Numbered from the stretch's first letter, positions 13,643-18,675 are shown. The stretch: DNA of 64,000 bases from Candidatus Latescibacterota bacterium (GCA_965248355.1 OZ252098.1:5120001-5184000), one strand, 5' to 3'. Program-made: numbers and translations. Notes: generated by a model from the letters alone, not told the origin.

Positions 13643-14986
13643 ATGATTCCACGGTCGATTCCCTTGGTCCTGCTGCTGGCGGCTCTAACTGCGCCGGCTC
13701 TGGCGCAAGCCGGCCCCTCGGCGGCGGCCGGGACCGACACGACGGACGTCTACGAGACCCGGCGCAACCACCTCCTCGCCTTTCCGAAGTACGTCTGGAA
13801 CACCCTGGTCTATCCCATCGGCCGGTTCACCATCTGGGTCGAGCACGAACAGGTGCCCGCTCGCGTGGTGGATCTGTTCACCAACGAGGCGGAGACCTTC
13901 GGGGTCTTCCCCTACGGGGCTTTGGGCGGAGAGACGGGAACCGCCGGCGGATTCACGACGTTCCATTCCGATCTGTTCGGACGCGGCAAGGGATTCTCGG
14001 CGAGCCTGGTCTCCAACCGCGGCAACTACAGCGGAGCCGCCCTGTACGACGACCCGGGCATCGGCGGCGGCCCCTGGTACTGGAATGCCTCTGTCGAAGC
14101 GCTGAGGACGGGGCATGAGAACGCCACCATCAACGGTAAGCTGCGGGGGGCGGGTTCCCTGCTCGATCTCGAGCAGAGGGATGCGAGGATCGCCCTTGGG
14201 CGCGGCTCCAACTACGGCGAGACCGAGGGCTACGAACCGGATGCGATCCTCGAGCTGCGCCTGTCCCACGGCTTCCGGGAGTACGTCGCCGACTGGCCCA
14301 TGCCTTGGCATATTCCCGGCCTGAACCAGGCCATCAACCTGTTCTCGGTGGGCGCCGCAGCAGCCTTCGACGACCGCGACTTCAAGCCGTCCACCACCTC
14401 CATCAGCCATCCCTTGAACTACCAGTTCCCCGGGCGGGTCCTCCTCTTCGCCGACGACCGCTACTACAGTTTCCGCGACACGGCTTTCCCCGAGCACGGC
14501 GGACTGGCCAGCATCGAGGCGGACTATGTAGCGGGTTCCAGGGACGTTCGGTATCTCCGCTACGCAGCCGAGCTGCAGCGCTTCTTCACCCTGTTCTACA
14601 CGAACCGGATCCTCGGTCTCAGGGCCAGGCTCGAGAACACCCACGCCTTGGGAGAGGCCAGCCTTGTCCCGTACTCCGACATGCCCACCCTGGGCGGCGG
14701 CCAGCGGCTGCGCGGCTACCGGCGGGGGTTCTTTCGCGACAAGGGCAGCCTGCTGCTCAGCGCCGAGTACCGCTACCCGATCTGGGATACCTGGAACGCC
14801 TTCCTGTTCTGGGAGGAAGGCCAGGTGTTCGAGAGGTACGGAGATCTCGAAGCTGGCAGGTTCGAGTACAGCTTCGGCGCCGGCATCAGCGTGCGGACCG
14901 AGCGCGCCTTCCTCTTCGGTGTGCGCATCGCGCGCAGCGAGCAAGAGAAGGCGTTGACCGGCTTCTCGCTGGAGAAGGAGTTCTGA
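13643..14986 (+). CDS. Omp85 (BamA/TamA-family) outer-membrane beta-barrel, no obvious POTRA domains
   Basis: Signal peptide MIPRSIPLVLLLAALTAPALAQA; loop-6 motif LGGGQRLRGYRRGFFRD; SAEYRYPI; C-terminal Phe (SLEKEF). Confidence 0.8.
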   Translation: MIPRSIPLVLLLAALTAPALAQAGPSAAAGTDTTDVYETRRNHLLAFPKYVWNTLVYPIGRFTIWVEHEQVPARVVDLFTNEAETFGVFPYGALGGETGTAGGFTTFHSDLFGRGKGFSASLVSNRGNYSGAALYDDPGIGGGPWYWNASVEALRTGHENATINGKLRGAGSLLDLEQRDARIALGRGSNYGETEGYEPDAILELRLSHGFREYVADWPMPWHIPGLNQAINLFSVGAAAAFDDRDFKPSTTSISHPLNYQFPGRVLLFADDRYYSFRDTAFPEHGGLASIEADYVAGSRDVRYLRYAAELQRFFTLFYTNRILGLRARLENTHALGEASLVPYSDMPTLGGGQRLRGYRRGFFRDKGSLLLSAEYRYPIWDTWNAFLFWEEGQVFERYGDLEAGRFEYSFGAGISVRTERAFLFGVRIARSEQEKALTGFSLEKEF

Positions 14987-16659
14987 TGAGCTCCCTGCGA
15001 GCCGCCATGCTGCTGGCCTTCGTGCTCTTGTTGCCGGTCGCAGGTGAGGCCACCTCCAGGCTGACGGCCGACCCCATCAAGTGGTTCGACGCCGACAACA
15101 AGCCGATCGCCGAGCCGGCCGAGGCCGGCGAAAACAAGATCTGGGACTTCATCGACAAGACCACCTTCTACCAGGTCGGCAAGGTCCTCGACCTGGGGTG
15201 GACGGCCCGCCGGGTGGGCCACCTCCTCGGCGTCGTCGGGCCGCGTCAGGCCGACAACGTCAACGCCCTGGACGAGGTGCCCAACTCCTCGTGGTACACC
15301 AACCGGCACTTCCTGCGGCCCATGACCCTGGCGGAGTTGGCCGAAGGGCCGGGGGTGGCCCGGCCCGACGACAGCGGCCCCTGGGAGATCGTGGCCGGCA
15401 AGTTCGAGGGGATCACCGCGGGCTTCACCATCAAGGACGCCTCGGGCCGGTACTTCCTGCTCAAGTTCGACTCGAAGGGGAACGACGAGATGGGGTCCGG
15501 CTCCGAGGTGGTGGTCACCAAGGCGCTGCACGCCGCCGGCTACAACGTGCCGCGCAACTCGGTCGTCTACTTCGATCCCGGACAGCTGGAGATCGGCCCC
15601 AGGGCCAAGGTCTCGGCGGGAGACGGTGAGAAGCGGGCCATGACCCGGGAGGACCTGCAGGAGATCCTCGACAGCCTCACTCCGCAGCCGGACGGCACCC
15701 TGCGCTGCCTGGCGAGCCAGTTCCTCGAGGGCAAGCCGGTAGGGGTCTTCAACTACGACGGCCGGCGCAAGGACGACCCCAACGACAAGGTGGACCACGA
15801 GCACCGGCGCGAGCTGCGGGGGTTGCGCGTCATCGGCTCCTGGCTGAACGACGCCGACCGCCGGGCCGCCAATACCCTGGACATGTACGTGACCGAGGCC
15901 GACGGCCGCAGGTACGTCCGCCACTACCTGATCGACATGGGCTCCGCCCTCGGCAGCGGCAGCTGGAGACCGCACCAGCCCAAGCACGGCAACGAGTACA
16001 TGGTGGATCTGCGCACGATCTTCGGGTCCTTCGTCTCGTTGGGGTTCTACCGGAAGGAGTGGGAAGAGCCGGTGCCCATGTCGTACATCTCCCTCGGCTA
16101 CTTCGAGAACGAGACCTTCAGCCCCGGGGGGTGGGTGCCGGACTATCCCAATCCCGCCTTCGAGCGTTGCACCAACCGCGACGGGTACTGGGGCGCCAAG
16201 ATCGTCATGGCCTTCGGCGACGACGAGATCCGCGCCATGGTGGAGCGGGGGCGCTACTCCGATCCGGGCGCGGCGGAGGAACTGACCCGGCTCCTGGCGG
16301 AGCGGCGGGACATGATCGGGCGCTACTGGTTCGAGCGGGTCAACCCGCTGGACCGCTTTGCCGTTGACGGCTATCAGCTTCGATTCGTCGATCTCGCCGT
16401 GGAGGGCGGGCTCGTTCCGCGTGAGTCACGGCAGTGGCGGTATGCTGTCGTCGACGCGGAGGGGGATCGGCTGGTCGAGCCGCGGCGGGTGGCAGAGCCG
16501 GTCCCGATCGGGGACGAGGCACGGCCGGGTCGGTTCTTCGGCTACCGGCTGCAGAGCCGCAGCGGCGAGAGGGAGAAGTGGAGCAAGAGCACGACGGTGT
16601 TTCTGTACAATCACGAAGACGGACGTCTGCAACTGGTGCGGATCGACAGGGAGGAGTAG
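14986..16659 (+). CDS. Exported protein with atypical protein-kinase-like fold (HipA/PI3-4K/CotH/Fam20-type motifs)
   Basis: ATG overlaps the upstream TGA. Signal peptide MSSLRAAMLLAFVLLLPVAGEA; GKFEGITAGF, FLLKFD, SEVVVTKALHAAGYNVP, WLNDADRRAAN, YLIDMG. Confidence 0.65.
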   Translation: MSSLRAAMLLAFVLLLPVAGEATSRLTADPIKWFDADNKPIAEPAEAGENKIWDFIDKTTFYQVGKVLDLGWTARRVGHLLGVVGPRQADNVNALDEVPNSSWYTNRHFLRPMTLAELAEGPGVARPDDSGPWEIVAGKFEGITAGFTIKDASGRYFLLKFDSKGNDEMGSGSEVVVTKALHAAGYNVPRNSVVYFDPGQLEIGPRAKVSAGDGEKRAMTREDLQEILDSLTPQPDGTLRCLASQFLEGKPVGVFNYDGRRKDDPNDKVDHEHRRELRGLRVIGSWLNDADRRAANTLDMYVTEADGRRYVRHYLIDMGSALGSGSWRPHQPKHGNEYMVDLRTIFGSFVSLGFYRKEWEEPVPMSYISLGYFENETFSPGGWVPDYPNPAFERCTNRDGYWGAKIVMAFGDDEIRAMVERGRYSDPGAAEELTRLLAERRDMIGRYWFERVNPLDRFAVDGYQLRFVDLAVEGGLVPRESRQWRYAVVDAEGDRLVEPRRVAEPVPIGDEARPGRFFGYRLQSRSGEREKWSKSTTVFLYNHEDGRLQLVRIDREE

Positions 16660-16665
16660 CCGAGT

Positions 16666-18117: not shown

Positions 18118-18128
18118 AGGTGCCTGGT

Positions 18129-18675
18129 ATGAGAATCGAGCCGGCCCTTGCTCTCTGGATCCTCATCGGCTCGGCGTGCAGCCATACCAGTCCTATGTCC
18201 GGCGAGAGGATCAGCCACAGGGTCCTGTTGTTCGGAGATGGAGGCGCGCCATCCATCGACGAGGCGACTCCCGCCGGGGAGCTCTACAAGGGTGATCCCA
18301 CTCTGAGAAGCCTCCATTGGTGGGCCCGGAGCATCGGGGGCGGGCGGCCGGGGCCGGCCAAGGTGGACAAGGATGGTGTTCGGATCATAGCGCTCGATAC
18401 CCAGTGGTGGTTGCATCGCGACGATGACAAACCAATGGACTTGAACGGCCGGTTCCCCTGCCGGTCGCGGGCAGCATGTACCCACTCGGACCACAGTCTC
18501 CATCCTCGTCAGCGGTTCGGGCTCGAGGACGAGCAATGTGAGTCACGGGAAGGACACCCTCTTTGCCCACGAACATCTGGGGTACATGGCGGTCGATTTC
18601 GTGGAGGATGGCCGGGTCCTGCTGCGGGTGGTCGAGCCCACGGAGGAGGGGCAGATGATCGCTGGAGTCATCTAG
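18129..18675 (+). pseudogene. Degenerate secreted/lipoprotein calcineurin-like metallophosphoesterase
   Basis: Lipobox-like IGSAC; RVLLFGDGG; RIIALDTQWWL; HSDHSL; then, in another frame, ILVSGSGSRTSNVSHGKDTLFAHEHLGYMAVDF...TAG at 18673. The GD/GNHD metal-binding segments are missing. Confidence 0.65.

Follow-up and report, generated by a model that had tools for sequence, protein, structure and literature searches.

A recurrent gene cluster that sets an Omp85 barrel and an exported kinase-fold protein beside an NTT-family transporter

The four genes at positions 13643-18676 of the window, that is, of the whole 64-kb stretch of DNA that was analysed, form one copy of a widespread and uncharacterised envelope module, the core of which consists of a short Omp85 barrel (gene 1) and an exported protein with a protein-kinase-like (PKL) fold (gene 2). 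The arrangement is more than chance, since co-oriented clusters of the same make-up turn up in related loci across several phyla. No published description of the gene cluster was found, and neither genes 1-3 nor an intact relative of the gene 4 product (from locus L080) matched the PADLOC defence models at E<=0.01. All four genes have the same orientation, and the cluster and its downstream neighbour are laid out as follows:

Gene 1, 13643..14986, + strand: short Omp85-family outer-membrane barrel, 447 aa, with signal peptide
Gene 2, 14986..16659, + strand: exported protein-kinase-like (PKL) fold protein, 557 aa
Gene 3, 16666..18117, + strand: distant TLC/NTT (ATP/ADP translocase) family inner-membrane transporter, 483 aa as called
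Gene 4, 18129..18676, + strand: lipoprotein metallophosphoesterase pseudogene ('MPEa' type)
MscS-like gene, 18672-19595, - strand: convergent, abutting the 3' end of gene 4

The TGA of gene 1 and the ATG of gene 2 share an A (TGATG, a 1-nt overlap), genes 2 and 3 are separated by 6 nt, and the ATG of gene 4 (18129) follows gene 3 after 11 nt. The open reading frames and these junctions bear out the sequence-only reading of four tightly coupled, co-oriented genes. Translation of gene 1 from the ATG at 13643 yields a signal peptide. The protein passes the Pfam Omp85 model PF01103 (6.3e-11, 42.8 bits vs a cut-off of 24) and scores under the cut-off of NCBIfam Omp85_fam; Omp85 accounts for 28 of the 30 Atlas clusters nearest to it. 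No POTRA family of Pfam was matched at E<=0.01, and about 100 residues past the signal peptide are without a domain match. Gene 1 may be of the 'noNterm' Omp85 type described in PMC4104836. A TpsB/TpsA pairing of genes 1 and 2 finds no support among their Pfam matches, which include neither ShlB-type/POTRA_2 nor TPS.

The gene 2 product opens with a signal peptide and a helical N-terminal region, followed by a bilobal kinase-like core (~130-450) and, at the C-terminus, a beta-sandwich (~455-557). Its sequence matches no Pfam or NCBIfam family at E<=0.01, none of the Fam20 (PF06702), HipA and PI3_PI4 profiles, and no PDB sequence. The AF2 model (pLDDT 94.4, pTM 0.93) returned 16 Foldseek matches in the PDB at E<=0.001, headed by Fam20C (2.1e-5), CtkA (7.8e-5, TM 0.56 on target), Hydra Fam20 and PI4KIIalpha, with Foldseek probabilities of 0.9-1.0 for Fam20C, CtkA, PI4KIIalpha, ERK2, PINK1 and Rio2. 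Given low TM-scores (0.20-0.31 on the query) and modest E-values, the fold class is clear, whereas the specific kinase family is not. The nearest named Atlas clusters (Fam20C, HipA_2 and PI3_PI4, at 0.79-0.81) serve as a lead only. Modelling and structural comparison thus support the kinase fold that had been proposed for this protein.

Four residues of gene 2, K160, D291, N296 and D317, show conservation of at least 90% across 62 relatives (32-55% identity); in 22 closer relatives they are invariant, and E174 is at least 90% conserved. In the model K160 is the last residue of the third N-lobe strand (156-160) and E174 lies in the next helix (169-184), while D291 and N296 fall in a loop past helix 280-287 and D317 past the next hairpin. 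These positions suggest that K160 is the putative ATP-anchoring lysine, pairing with E174, that D291 and N296 are the putative catalytic-loop Asp and Asn, and that D317 is the putative metal-binding Asp, equivalent to that of DFG. The signal peptide and ordered kinase motifs reported earlier are therefore real. On the bilobal fold and conserved residues of the model, gene 2 is assigned to the PKL superfamily, with phosphotransfer as its putative activity. At E<=0.001 the family numbers 2926 cluster representatives, with clustering at 50% identity. Export, likewise proposed beforehand, agrees with a hydrophobic, signal-peptide-like N-terminus in all 62 relatives (read by eye) and a strict lipobox in 25 of the 62 (pattern search).

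Gene 2 shares its fold class and style of catalytic loop with CtkA of H. pylori, its second-best structural match, with CotH of the Bacillus spore coat and with HipA. It differs from all three in having no detectable sequence similarity to them and in carrying the extra N-terminal region and the C-terminal beta-sandwich. CtkA acts in the cytoplasm of the host cell, CotH in the mother cell and HipA in the bacterium's own cytoplasm.

Gene 3 passes the Pfam TLC model PF03219 (7e-21, 75 bits vs a cut-off of 21), in keeping with the Npt/TLC signatures noticed before. The closest known transporters are NTT/TLC proteins such as Chlamydia Npt1, plastid NTT1 and PamNTT1. Gene 3 aligns to solved NTT structures (9j3n, E 6.8e-11; 9j3j, 4e-10), including the conserved KE..Y.P....K.K.KA.ID stretch. 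It differs in belonging to a free-living lineage and in lying far under the cut-off of NCBIfam TIGR00769, 'NTP/NDP exchange transporter' (60.9 bits vs 387.2). Nucleotide is accordingly only a putative cargo, given this distance from the characterised NTTs. A crude and approximate Kyte-Doolittle scan gave about 11-12 hydrophobic segments and a long central loop, where about 12 transmembrane helices are expected, and a crude positive-inside count gave no sign of inverted topology; translation may in fact begin near codon 34-49. In PamNTT1, ATP import with ADP export is strongly favoured and the reverse is suppressed, whatever the nucleotide gradient (PMC1951785), so that ATP export by gene 3 would need an altered kinetic preference.

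Gene 4 is a dead metallophosphoesterase pseudogene. Three-frame translation resolves it into four collinear pieces across three reading frames (~18162-18326, 18342-18467, 18452-18487 and 18502-18645), which correspond to residues 19-75, 163-200, 256-267 and 323-372 of the intact 384-aa lipoprotein metallophosphoesterase of L080. In tblastn with the L080 protein the best piece is 62% identical over 50 aa (E 2e-18, with this stretch alone searched); the others comprise 40% over 42 aa, 9 of 12 residues identical and a weak N-terminal piece. About 183 of about 384 codons are retained, and the stretches that hold motifs II-V (GDN.Y, GNHD, the His motif and GHDH in L080) are deleted. Gene 4 has no Pfam match, while its intact relatives do match PF00149. 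The earlier description of a remnant was correct as such, but understated the decay and placed the end at 18675, where the stop codon occupies 18674-18676. In the relative L003 (84% identity) the phosphoesterase is absent, and the TLC gene is followed by the MscS gene within ~70 nt. With gene 4 dead and no counterpart in L003, no phosphatase encoded by the cluster can reverse a modification here, contrary to what the sequence-only reading had supposed.

The recurrence of the module was assessed in 80 related loci from several phyla, of which 73 have at least 1300 nt upstream and 61 at least 3 kb downstream. In 67 of the 73, a barrel gene in the same orientation precedes the gene 2 homologue by no more than 1.4 kb, and in 63 it is the immediate neighbour; barrel-enzyme pairs occur in tandem in L001, L006, L031 and L033. 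Of the 61 loci with sufficient downstream sequence, 42 carry a TLC gene (48 of 80 overall), in every case on the same strand, so that the predicted conserved linkage to Npt/TLC genes holds in this neighbourhood survey; the remaining 19 of the 61 have none. All major clades in the tree of gene 2 show the linkage, namely the Latescibacterota, Rhodothermota, Balneolota, Calditrichota/KSB1, Zixiibacteriota, Ignavibacteriota and Krumholzibacteriota. Among the 80 loci, gene-3-like TLC genes are found in 34, a TLC-HEAT fusion in 31 and both in 21, and a small cNMP-binding gene in 15. An intact phosphoesterase occurs in 17 of the 80 and belongs to one of two families, each with a weak resemblance to purple acid phosphatase type 5 (E 6e-3 and 6e-5). 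Sporadic neighbours are lipid-related: a Patatin-Omp85 fusion (L022), PAP2 (L051) and LPG_synthase_TM (L053).

Relatives that carry an NTT-HEAT gene followed by a cNMP-binding gene resemble the NTT-HEAT + cNBD operon of Major et al. 2017 (PMC5381601). The window itself differs from that operon: tblastn of the 64 kb found no NTT-HEAT or cNMP-binding gene. Pairs of TLC-HEAT and cNBD are known from cyanobacteria, chlamydiae and oomycetes (PMC5381601), outside the phyla of the 80 loci, and their role may therefore be more general. The placement of gene 3 beside exported kinase-fold and Omp85 genes is a context not mentioned in the accessible part of PMC5381601.

Natural fusions join the enzyme to the barrel. 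The 981-aa protein P0390, found on 4 contigs, comprises a lipobox, a gene-2-like domain (3-548) and an Omp85 barrel (599-969), and its domain order, opposite to the gene order, shows that it is not a read-through. Bacteroidota proteins of ~1250 aa combine Metallophos, a middle domain and Omp85; 375 relatives of this type were found at E<=0.001 among 8000 candidates scored, so the Omp85-metallophosphoesterase fusion family named in the sequence-only reading does exist (see also PMC4104836). The model of the fused middle domain (pLDDT 91) matches CtkA (2.3e-6), CotH, PI4KIIalpha, VPS34, HipA and Fam20C, with CtkA, CotH and HipA the best among its structural matches, and sequence homology between it and the gene 2 family is not demonstrable by hhalign (probability 5.9% and 0.7%). 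Metallophos-kinase-fold-Omp85 fusions also occur within the same clusters (L066, L070), as does a form without the phosphoesterase (L022, L041).

The layout of P0390 and of the 1250-aa fusions, with the enzyme N-terminal to an Omp85-type 16-stranded barrel, is that of PlpD and of 'Omp85-Metallo' (PF00149). The window differs from both in encoding barrel and enzyme separately, by genes that are translationally coupled, and in having a kinase-fold enzyme in place of a lipase. In the available text of PMC4104836, PF00149 is termed a metalloprotease domain and a kinase-like domain is not mentioned. The patatin domain of PlpD, itself an Omp85 protein, is described as remaining periplasmic, on the N-terminal side of the barrel (PMC11116518). 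Given the natural fusions and this analogy, the barrel is likelier to tether the enzyme on the periplasmic side than to present or export it, as the sequence-only reading had it.

Building on the observed fold, export signals, conserved catalytic residues, linkage and fusions, the best explanation, offered tentatively and with a probability somewhat short of even, is that a kinase-fold enzyme held by the barrel at the inner face of the outer membrane receives its nucleotide from the transporter and carries out phosphotransfer. We know of no source of nucleotide triphosphate in the periplasm. Because a kinase-fold enzyme needs one, the carrier is a candidate supplier: going by the conserved linkage, gene 3 would bring ATP or another NTP from the cytoplasm and return the spent nucleotide. 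In relatives the TLC-HEAT fusion and the cNMP-binding protein would often join this carrier. In many of them the kinase-fold enzyme and a purple-acid-phosphatase-like lipoprotein phosphoesterase would make up a write/erase pair, of which the eraser has decayed in the window. Candidate substrates are envelope proteins, or lipids or LPS of the inner leaflet of the outer membrane. Counting against a supply of ATP, periplasmic ATP would be expected to leak out through porins.

The linkage data would fit equally well with scavenging of nucleotides or organophosphates, in which the barrel would admit extracellular nucleotides, to be bound or processed in the periplasm by the kinase-fold protein and the phosphoesterase and then imported by the TLC carriers. 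Nucleotide salvage does employ periplasmic metallophosphoesterases, UshA and CpdB among them, and import is the direction of characterised NTTs, as the bias of PamNTT1 illustrates (PMC1951785); NTT genes are common in free-living bacteria, their roles there being described as unknown (PMC5381601). However, it is not obvious what salvage would require of a kinase-fold enzyme whose catalytic residues are all conserved, as phosphorylation there would itself need ATP. The phosphoesterases are weakly nearer to purple acid phosphatases than to 5'-nucleotidases and are dispensable in the lineage of the window, and Omp85 barrels are not generally known as solute channels. Scavenging is thus considered unlikely. 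An envelope kinase with no dedicated ATP supply appears improbable too. Here the barrel-enzyme unit would act, for instance, as an outer-membrane lipid or LPS kinase, a pseudokinase or an enzyme of another kinase-fold chemistry such as AMPylation, and the TLC, TLC-HEAT and cNMP genes would be a separate, co-regulated module. The barrel-enzyme pair is indeed far more constant (67/73) than the TLC link (42/61), and pairs without TLC genes exist (L004, L005, L016 and others), one contig even carrying one pair with a TLC gene (L002) and one without (L004). The sporadic lipid-related neighbours (L022, L051, L053) would also suit such an enzyme, as would the TLC-HEAT + cNBD pairs outside the lineages of the 80 loci (PMC5381601). 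Against this, kinase-fold chemistry would still require nucleotide where no source is known, and the TLC genes stand on the same strand beside the pair across seven phyla, although the order of the genes varies. Since genomes seldom carry TLC genes, this is hard to account for without a functional tie.

Very unlikely, finally, is secretion resembling the two-partner type, with the barrel exporting the kinase-fold protein to the surface or the medium to act on other cells or extracellular substrates. Its appeal lies in the translational coupling of genes 1 and 2, in the presence of CtkA, a reported secreted kinase of H. pylori, among the closest structural matches, and in the ability of Omp85/TpsB proteins to translocate partners, PlpD having first been described as secreted (PMC4104836, PMC11116518). 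It is opposed by the absence from Pfam searches of a ShlB/POTRA_2 match in gene 1 and of a TPS domain in gene 2, by the prediction that about half of the gene 2 family are lipoproteins, and by the fusions, which put the enzyme N-terminal of the barrel, the periplasmic side in PlpD (PMC11116518). It would also leave the TLC linkage unexplained.

For a tethered enzyme supplied by a carrier, one of the closest known parallels is eukaryotic. Fam20C and Fam20B are kinases of the secretory pathway that rely on the ER/Golgi carrier SLC35B1/AXER, which brings ATP in and takes ADP/AMP out. Like them, gene 2 is a kinase-fold protein with a signal peptide, bound for a compartment topologically outside the cytosol, and Fam20C is its top structural match. 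Unlike the Fam20C and SLC35B1/AXER pair, it has no PF06702 match, the carrier is of NTT/TLC rather than SLC35 type, and an Omp85 barrel is paired or fused with the enzyme. The DNA ligase Lig E, which uses ATP and is directed to the periplasm (bioRxiv 10.64898/2026.03.22.713542), offers a precedent for a periplasmic ATP-dependent enzyme; its fold and task are unrelated, and the accessible part of that source mentions no dedicated nucleotide carrier.

A bolder form of the proposal, which must be regarded as rather doubtful, is that some free-living diderms energise the periplasm on purpose. An outward NTT carrier (ATP out, ADP + Pi in), possibly gated by the cNMP-binding protein through the HEAT-repeat paralogue, would feed the Omp85-bound kinase-fold enzyme, which together with the purple-acid-phosphatase-like eraser would phosphorylate outer-membrane lipids or proteins reversibly. 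If true, bacteria would have an equivalent of the secretory-pathway kinases of eukaryotes. The cluster as such suggests that the cell envelope of some free-living bacteria may be supplied with ATP.

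The positions that the sequence-only reading assigned to the four genes of the cluster are borne out by the ORF coordinates, and a convergent gene bounds the cluster at its downstream end:

13643-14986, plus strand: gene 1, a short Omp85 barrel (Pfam Omp85, 42.8 bits; cut-off 24)
14986-16659, plus strand: gene 2, an exported kinase-fold protein, here called the enzyme (no match in Pfam or NCBIfam)
16666-18117, plus strand: gene 3, a homologue of TLC/NTT nucleotide transporters (Pfam TLC, 75 bits; cut-off 21)
ATG at 18129, plus strand: the gene 4 frame, a metallophosphoesterase pseudogene (no match in Pfam or NCBIfam)
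18672-19595, minus strand: the bounding MscS-like gene

The last A of the gene 1 TGA is the first base of the gene 2 ATG (14986), and spacings of 6 bases between genes 2 and 3 and of 11 bases between gene 3 and the gene 4 ATG follow. A promoter and terminator scan of 13300-19800 gives no signal exceeding shuffled controls, an Rfam search of the window and of five related loci yields neither a riboswitch nor any other RNA family, and defence-system models have no match.

A library of 1.84 billion proteins contains 2926 50%-identity cluster representatives of the gene 2 family (E<=0.001), and those relatives of gene 2 that have names are all called 'hypothetical protein'. Sequence searches against Pfam, NCBIfam and PDB sequences return nothing for it, and none of the Fam20, HipA and PI3/4-kinase profiles takes it in. 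An AlphaFold2 model with 62 relatives as input (pLDDT 94.4, pTM 0.93) has 16 Foldseek matches in the PDB at E<=0.001, of which the best is Fam20C (2.1e-5). Helicobacter pylori CtkA is matched at 7.8e-5 (TM 0.56 normalised on CtkA), Hydra Fam20 and PI4KIIalpha come next, and Fam20A, ERK2, PINK1, Rio2 and actin-fragmin kinase rank lower. The predicted fold class is clear, while no particular kinase family can be assigned because the TM-scores on the 557-residue query are just 0.20-0.31. Both the alignments and the model indicate that the residues of an active kinase are conserved and placed as the kinase fold expects. More specifically, the third N-lobe strand terminates in K160, the helix after it contains E174, D291 and N296 occupy the loop following helix 280-287, and D317 comes after the hairpin that follows this loop. 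An invariant motif specific to the family, DDPND...HEHRRELRG (264-279), lies N-terminal to the catalytic loop. All 62 relatives have, as judged by eye, a signal-peptide-like hydrophobic N-terminus, and 25 carry a strict lipobox by pattern, to which a looser pattern would add more; the window copy has a Sec-type signal without Cys. The gene 2 protein is an exported, probably active kinase-fold enzyme.

The window's nearest relatives are found in Latescibacterota MAGs (87% identity, L006) and in MAGs labelled Gemmatimonadaceae. Several long gene-2-like proteins (P0239, P0249 and P0265) have extensions without a Pfam match. Another, P0255 (955 aa), has a GT4 glycosyltransferase domain (82-396) ahead of a full gene-2-like sequence, signal-peptide region included, and could be two genes merged by the gene calling instead of a true fusion.

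Conservation of the cluster was followed in 80 loci, the best of the 516 confirmed in a scan of one genome per species in GTDB, and thus not in a random sample of the family. Gene calls are based on tblastn and simple ORF rules, genes were classified by tblastn with queries from several loci, and eleven loci were checked by Pfam. An Omp85 gene lies directly upstream of the gene 2 homologue in 63 of the 73 loci with at least 1300 nt of upstream sequence, and within 1.4 kb on the same strand in 67; the added four are L011, L014 and L043, where a gene separates the barrel from the enzyme, and L031, where the gap measures 519 nt. Among the seven loci with a short upstream flank, five show a partial barrel. 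The six barrel-less loci are L063 and a single Latescibacterota clade (L017-L021); within this clade, L018 has two 7TMR-DISM histidine-kinase genes upstream in place of Omp85, and a TLC-HEAT and cNMP-binding pair at a distance of 6 kb. Tandem duplication (barrel, enzyme, barrel, enzyme) occurs at L001, L006, L031 and L033, with a TLC gene after the second pair in L006 and L033; the sequences of L001 and L031 end before that region.

At least one TLC gene is present in 42 of the 61 loci with at least 3 kb of downstream sequence (48 of 80 overall). Across all 80 loci, 34 have a gene-3-like TLC gene, 31 a TLC-HEAT fusion and 21 both, while a small cNMP-binding gene is found in 15 and a metallophosphoesterase, from two unrelated families, in 17. 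The genes usually run barrel, enzyme, [phosphoesterase], TLC, TLC-HEAT, cNMP-binding gene, [phosphoesterase], and all cluster genes are co-oriented with the sole exception of the L080 phosphoesterase. The phosphoesterase lies between enzyme and TLC gene in L040, L048, L051 and L075, between barrel and enzyme in L043, and at the cluster end in the remaining cases. The Salinivenus group has the two TLC genes in swapped order, and Fodinibius has TLC-HEAT upstream. TLC-linked loci are found in every major clade of the gene 2 family tree (Latescibacterota, Rhodothermota, Balneolota, Calditrichota/KSB1, Zixiibacteriota, Ignavibacteriota and Krumholzibacteriota). TLC genes are few in any one genome; that they recur here, with the order varying, therefore speaks for a functional tie, an argument from recurrence and not from a computed probability.

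Of the two phosphoesterase families, both of which weakly resemble purple acid phosphatases, gene 4 is of the L080/L066 type; its placement as a relative of the L040 phosphoesterase was rejected, there being no similarity. Compared with the intact 384-aa lipoprotein phosphoesterase of L080 (Pfam Metallophos), gene 4 consists of four collinear pieces in three frames, matching residues 19-75, 163-200, 256-267 and 323-372, the best with 62% identity over 50 residues. Deletion has removed the stretches that in L080 hold GDN.Y, GNHD, the His motif and GHDH, and gene 4 is dead. In L003, whose gene 2 is 84% identical, an MscS gene follows within about 70 nt of the TLC gene, with no trace of gene 4 between the two.

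The association between enzyme and barrel extends to gene fusion. P0390, a single 981-aa protein found on four contigs, has a lipobox, a gene-2-like domain (3-548; 45% identity to the L040 enzyme) and an Omp85 barrel (599-969). Because its domains run in the opposite order to the genes, P0390 is not a read-through of adjacent genes. A second kind of fusion occurs inside the clusters of L066 and L070 as a 1242-aa protein made up of a phosphoesterase domain, a middle domain and an Omp85 barrel. Its family is common in Bacteroidota (of 8000 candidates scored, 375 proteins reach E<=0.001), bears the names 'metallophosphoesterase' or 'BamA/TamA family', and also exists in a shorter version, about 880 aa long, that lacks the phosphoesterase. 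Modelling indicates that the middle domain likewise has a kinase fold: the model (pLDDT 91.1) has 60 structural matches at E<=0.001, among them CtkA (2.3e-6), CotH, PI4KIIalpha, VPS34, HipA/HipT, Rio2 and Fam20C. Its invariant motifs are GDWDRH.GQ and DRD, and its layout parallels that of gene 2, with a kinase core, a helical bundle and, running on into the barrel, a beta-rich C-terminal part. Comparison of the gene 2 family with the middle domain by hhalign is non-significant (probability 5.9% and 0.7%), and thus a shared fold and layout are claimed, and homology is not. These fusions correspond to the 'Omp85-Metallo' subfamily with PF00149 as set out in the available text of Heinz and Lithgow 2014 (PMC4104836), which terms the PF00149 domain a metalloprotease and, in that text, makes no mention of a kinase-like domain in these proteins.

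Middle-domain genes also accompany some of the loci. In L022 (8613-13701) the barrel-enzyme pair is followed by a Patatin-Omp85 fusion (PlpD-like) and then by a middle domain plus Omp85 protein, giving three consecutive Omp85 genes, each with a different periplasmic enzyme. L041 has a middle-domain-plus-Omp85 gene at 12578-15157.

Gene 3 aligns to solved structures of Npt1 and NTT1 (9j3n and 9j3j; E 6.8e-11 and 4.2e-10) across a region that includes the conserved stretch KE..Y.P....K.K.KA.ID, and has about 11-12 hydrophobic segments. By Pfam it is a TLC-family member, and it falls outside the NCBIfam cut-off (60.9 bits to TIGR00769; cut-off 387 bits); it is too distant from known NTTs for substrate or direction to be transferred. 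Because relatives at 53-64% identity (L009, L011, L012, L013 and L015) align only from residue 34 of the called ORF, translation may begin at a Met further downstream (around codon 49; the region concerned is 16666-16810), in which case hydrophobic segment 15-33, the first, may be untranslated.

Upstream of the cluster lies a very large WD40/Big_1 repeat gene (6549-13546), apparently split by a transposase:

6549-8222: N-terminal part, with Metallopep and WD40 matches
8307-9578: Mutator-family transposase
9623-13546: remainder, with WD40 propellers and four Big_1 domains

Its final 80 or so residues resemble a T9SS-type sorting domain and may represent one. The region 6001-20000, which includes the transposase, the WD40 gene and the entire cluster, has a G+C of 0.61-0.69 against 0.72-0.75 in both flanks, with third-position G+C of its genes also lower, and may have been transferred as an island; Latescibacterota MAGs of similar G+C (L003: 0.65) hold the cluster's closest relatives. 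A second low-G+C stretch (29800-36400; 0.54-0.64) also has ORFs without a Pfam match, and holds or is flanked by the following:

27046-29790, minus strand: full LigD, flanking
31745-32338: truncated N6_N4 DNA methylase
33403-34776: DDE transposase
36364-39063, minus strand: SNF2/DUF3670 helicase, flanking

Further downstream, 48509-54010 encodes an 1833-aa protein with many leucine-rich repeats, LDL-receptor class B (YWTD) repeats and an SGL-like propeller.

The enzyme is coupled to the barrel by translational overlap, near-constant adjacency and fusion, and is frequently linked to NTT-type carriers and a phosphoesterase. Omp85 proteins have their N-terminal domains in the periplasm, and PlpD, in the portion of the work available, has a patatin domain that remains periplasmic and acts on membrane lipids (PMC11116518); for this reason the enzyme would be seated on the barrel's periplasmic side. 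Another reading of the same coupling, in which the barrel secretes the enzyme, is quite improbable. A kinase-fold enzyme requires an NTP, and thus the simplest tie to the carrier would be one in which an inner-membrane carrier brings ATP to the enzyme and takes ADP away.

A barrel-tethered periplasmic enzyme with carrier-fed ATP is therefore put forward tentatively, at somewhat less than an even chance. Counting against it, PamNTT1 favours the import of ATP and, at any gradient, suppresses exchange in the other direction, according to the available part of that study (PMC1951785), and gene 3 is itself remote from the known NTTs. Nucleotide scavenging with import, a rival reading, is unlikely. 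Also against carrier-fed ATP, one third of loci have no TLC gene, and the accessible text of PMC5381601 places NTT-HEAT plus cNBD pairs in lineages beyond the phyla of these loci. A reading with the enzyme tethered to the barrel and the neighbouring TLC genes forming a module of their own is given the same low standing as scavenging. The structural neighbours of the enzyme span protein, glycan and lipid kinases. Sporadic neighbours, at single loci only (Patatin-Omp85, PAP2 and LPG_synthase_TM), hint at envelope lipids as a candidate substrate.

The closest working analogy to the module is in the eukaryotic secretory pathway, where Fam20 kinases are paired with a luminal ATP carrier; in architecture, its closest structural relatives are PlpD and the Omp85-Metallo proteins. 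A literature search covering few subscription journals found no description of the cluster or the gene 2 family, and the module appears novel by composition, biochemistry apart. In the textbook view the periplasm is without ATP, and known envelope machines are therefore powered from across the inner membrane or by donors such as undecaprenyl pyrophosphate. The exported kinase-fold enzymes form a large unannotated family that is paired with or fused to Omp85 and linked to carriers across several phyla, and the module, with cultured carriers in Fodinibius roseus, Aliifodinibius salipaludis and Salinivenus species, opens periplasmic ATP-dependent chemistry to direct testing. The finding would supply the first functional context both for the NTT genes of free-living bacteria and for the middle domain of the 'Omp85-Metallo' proteins.
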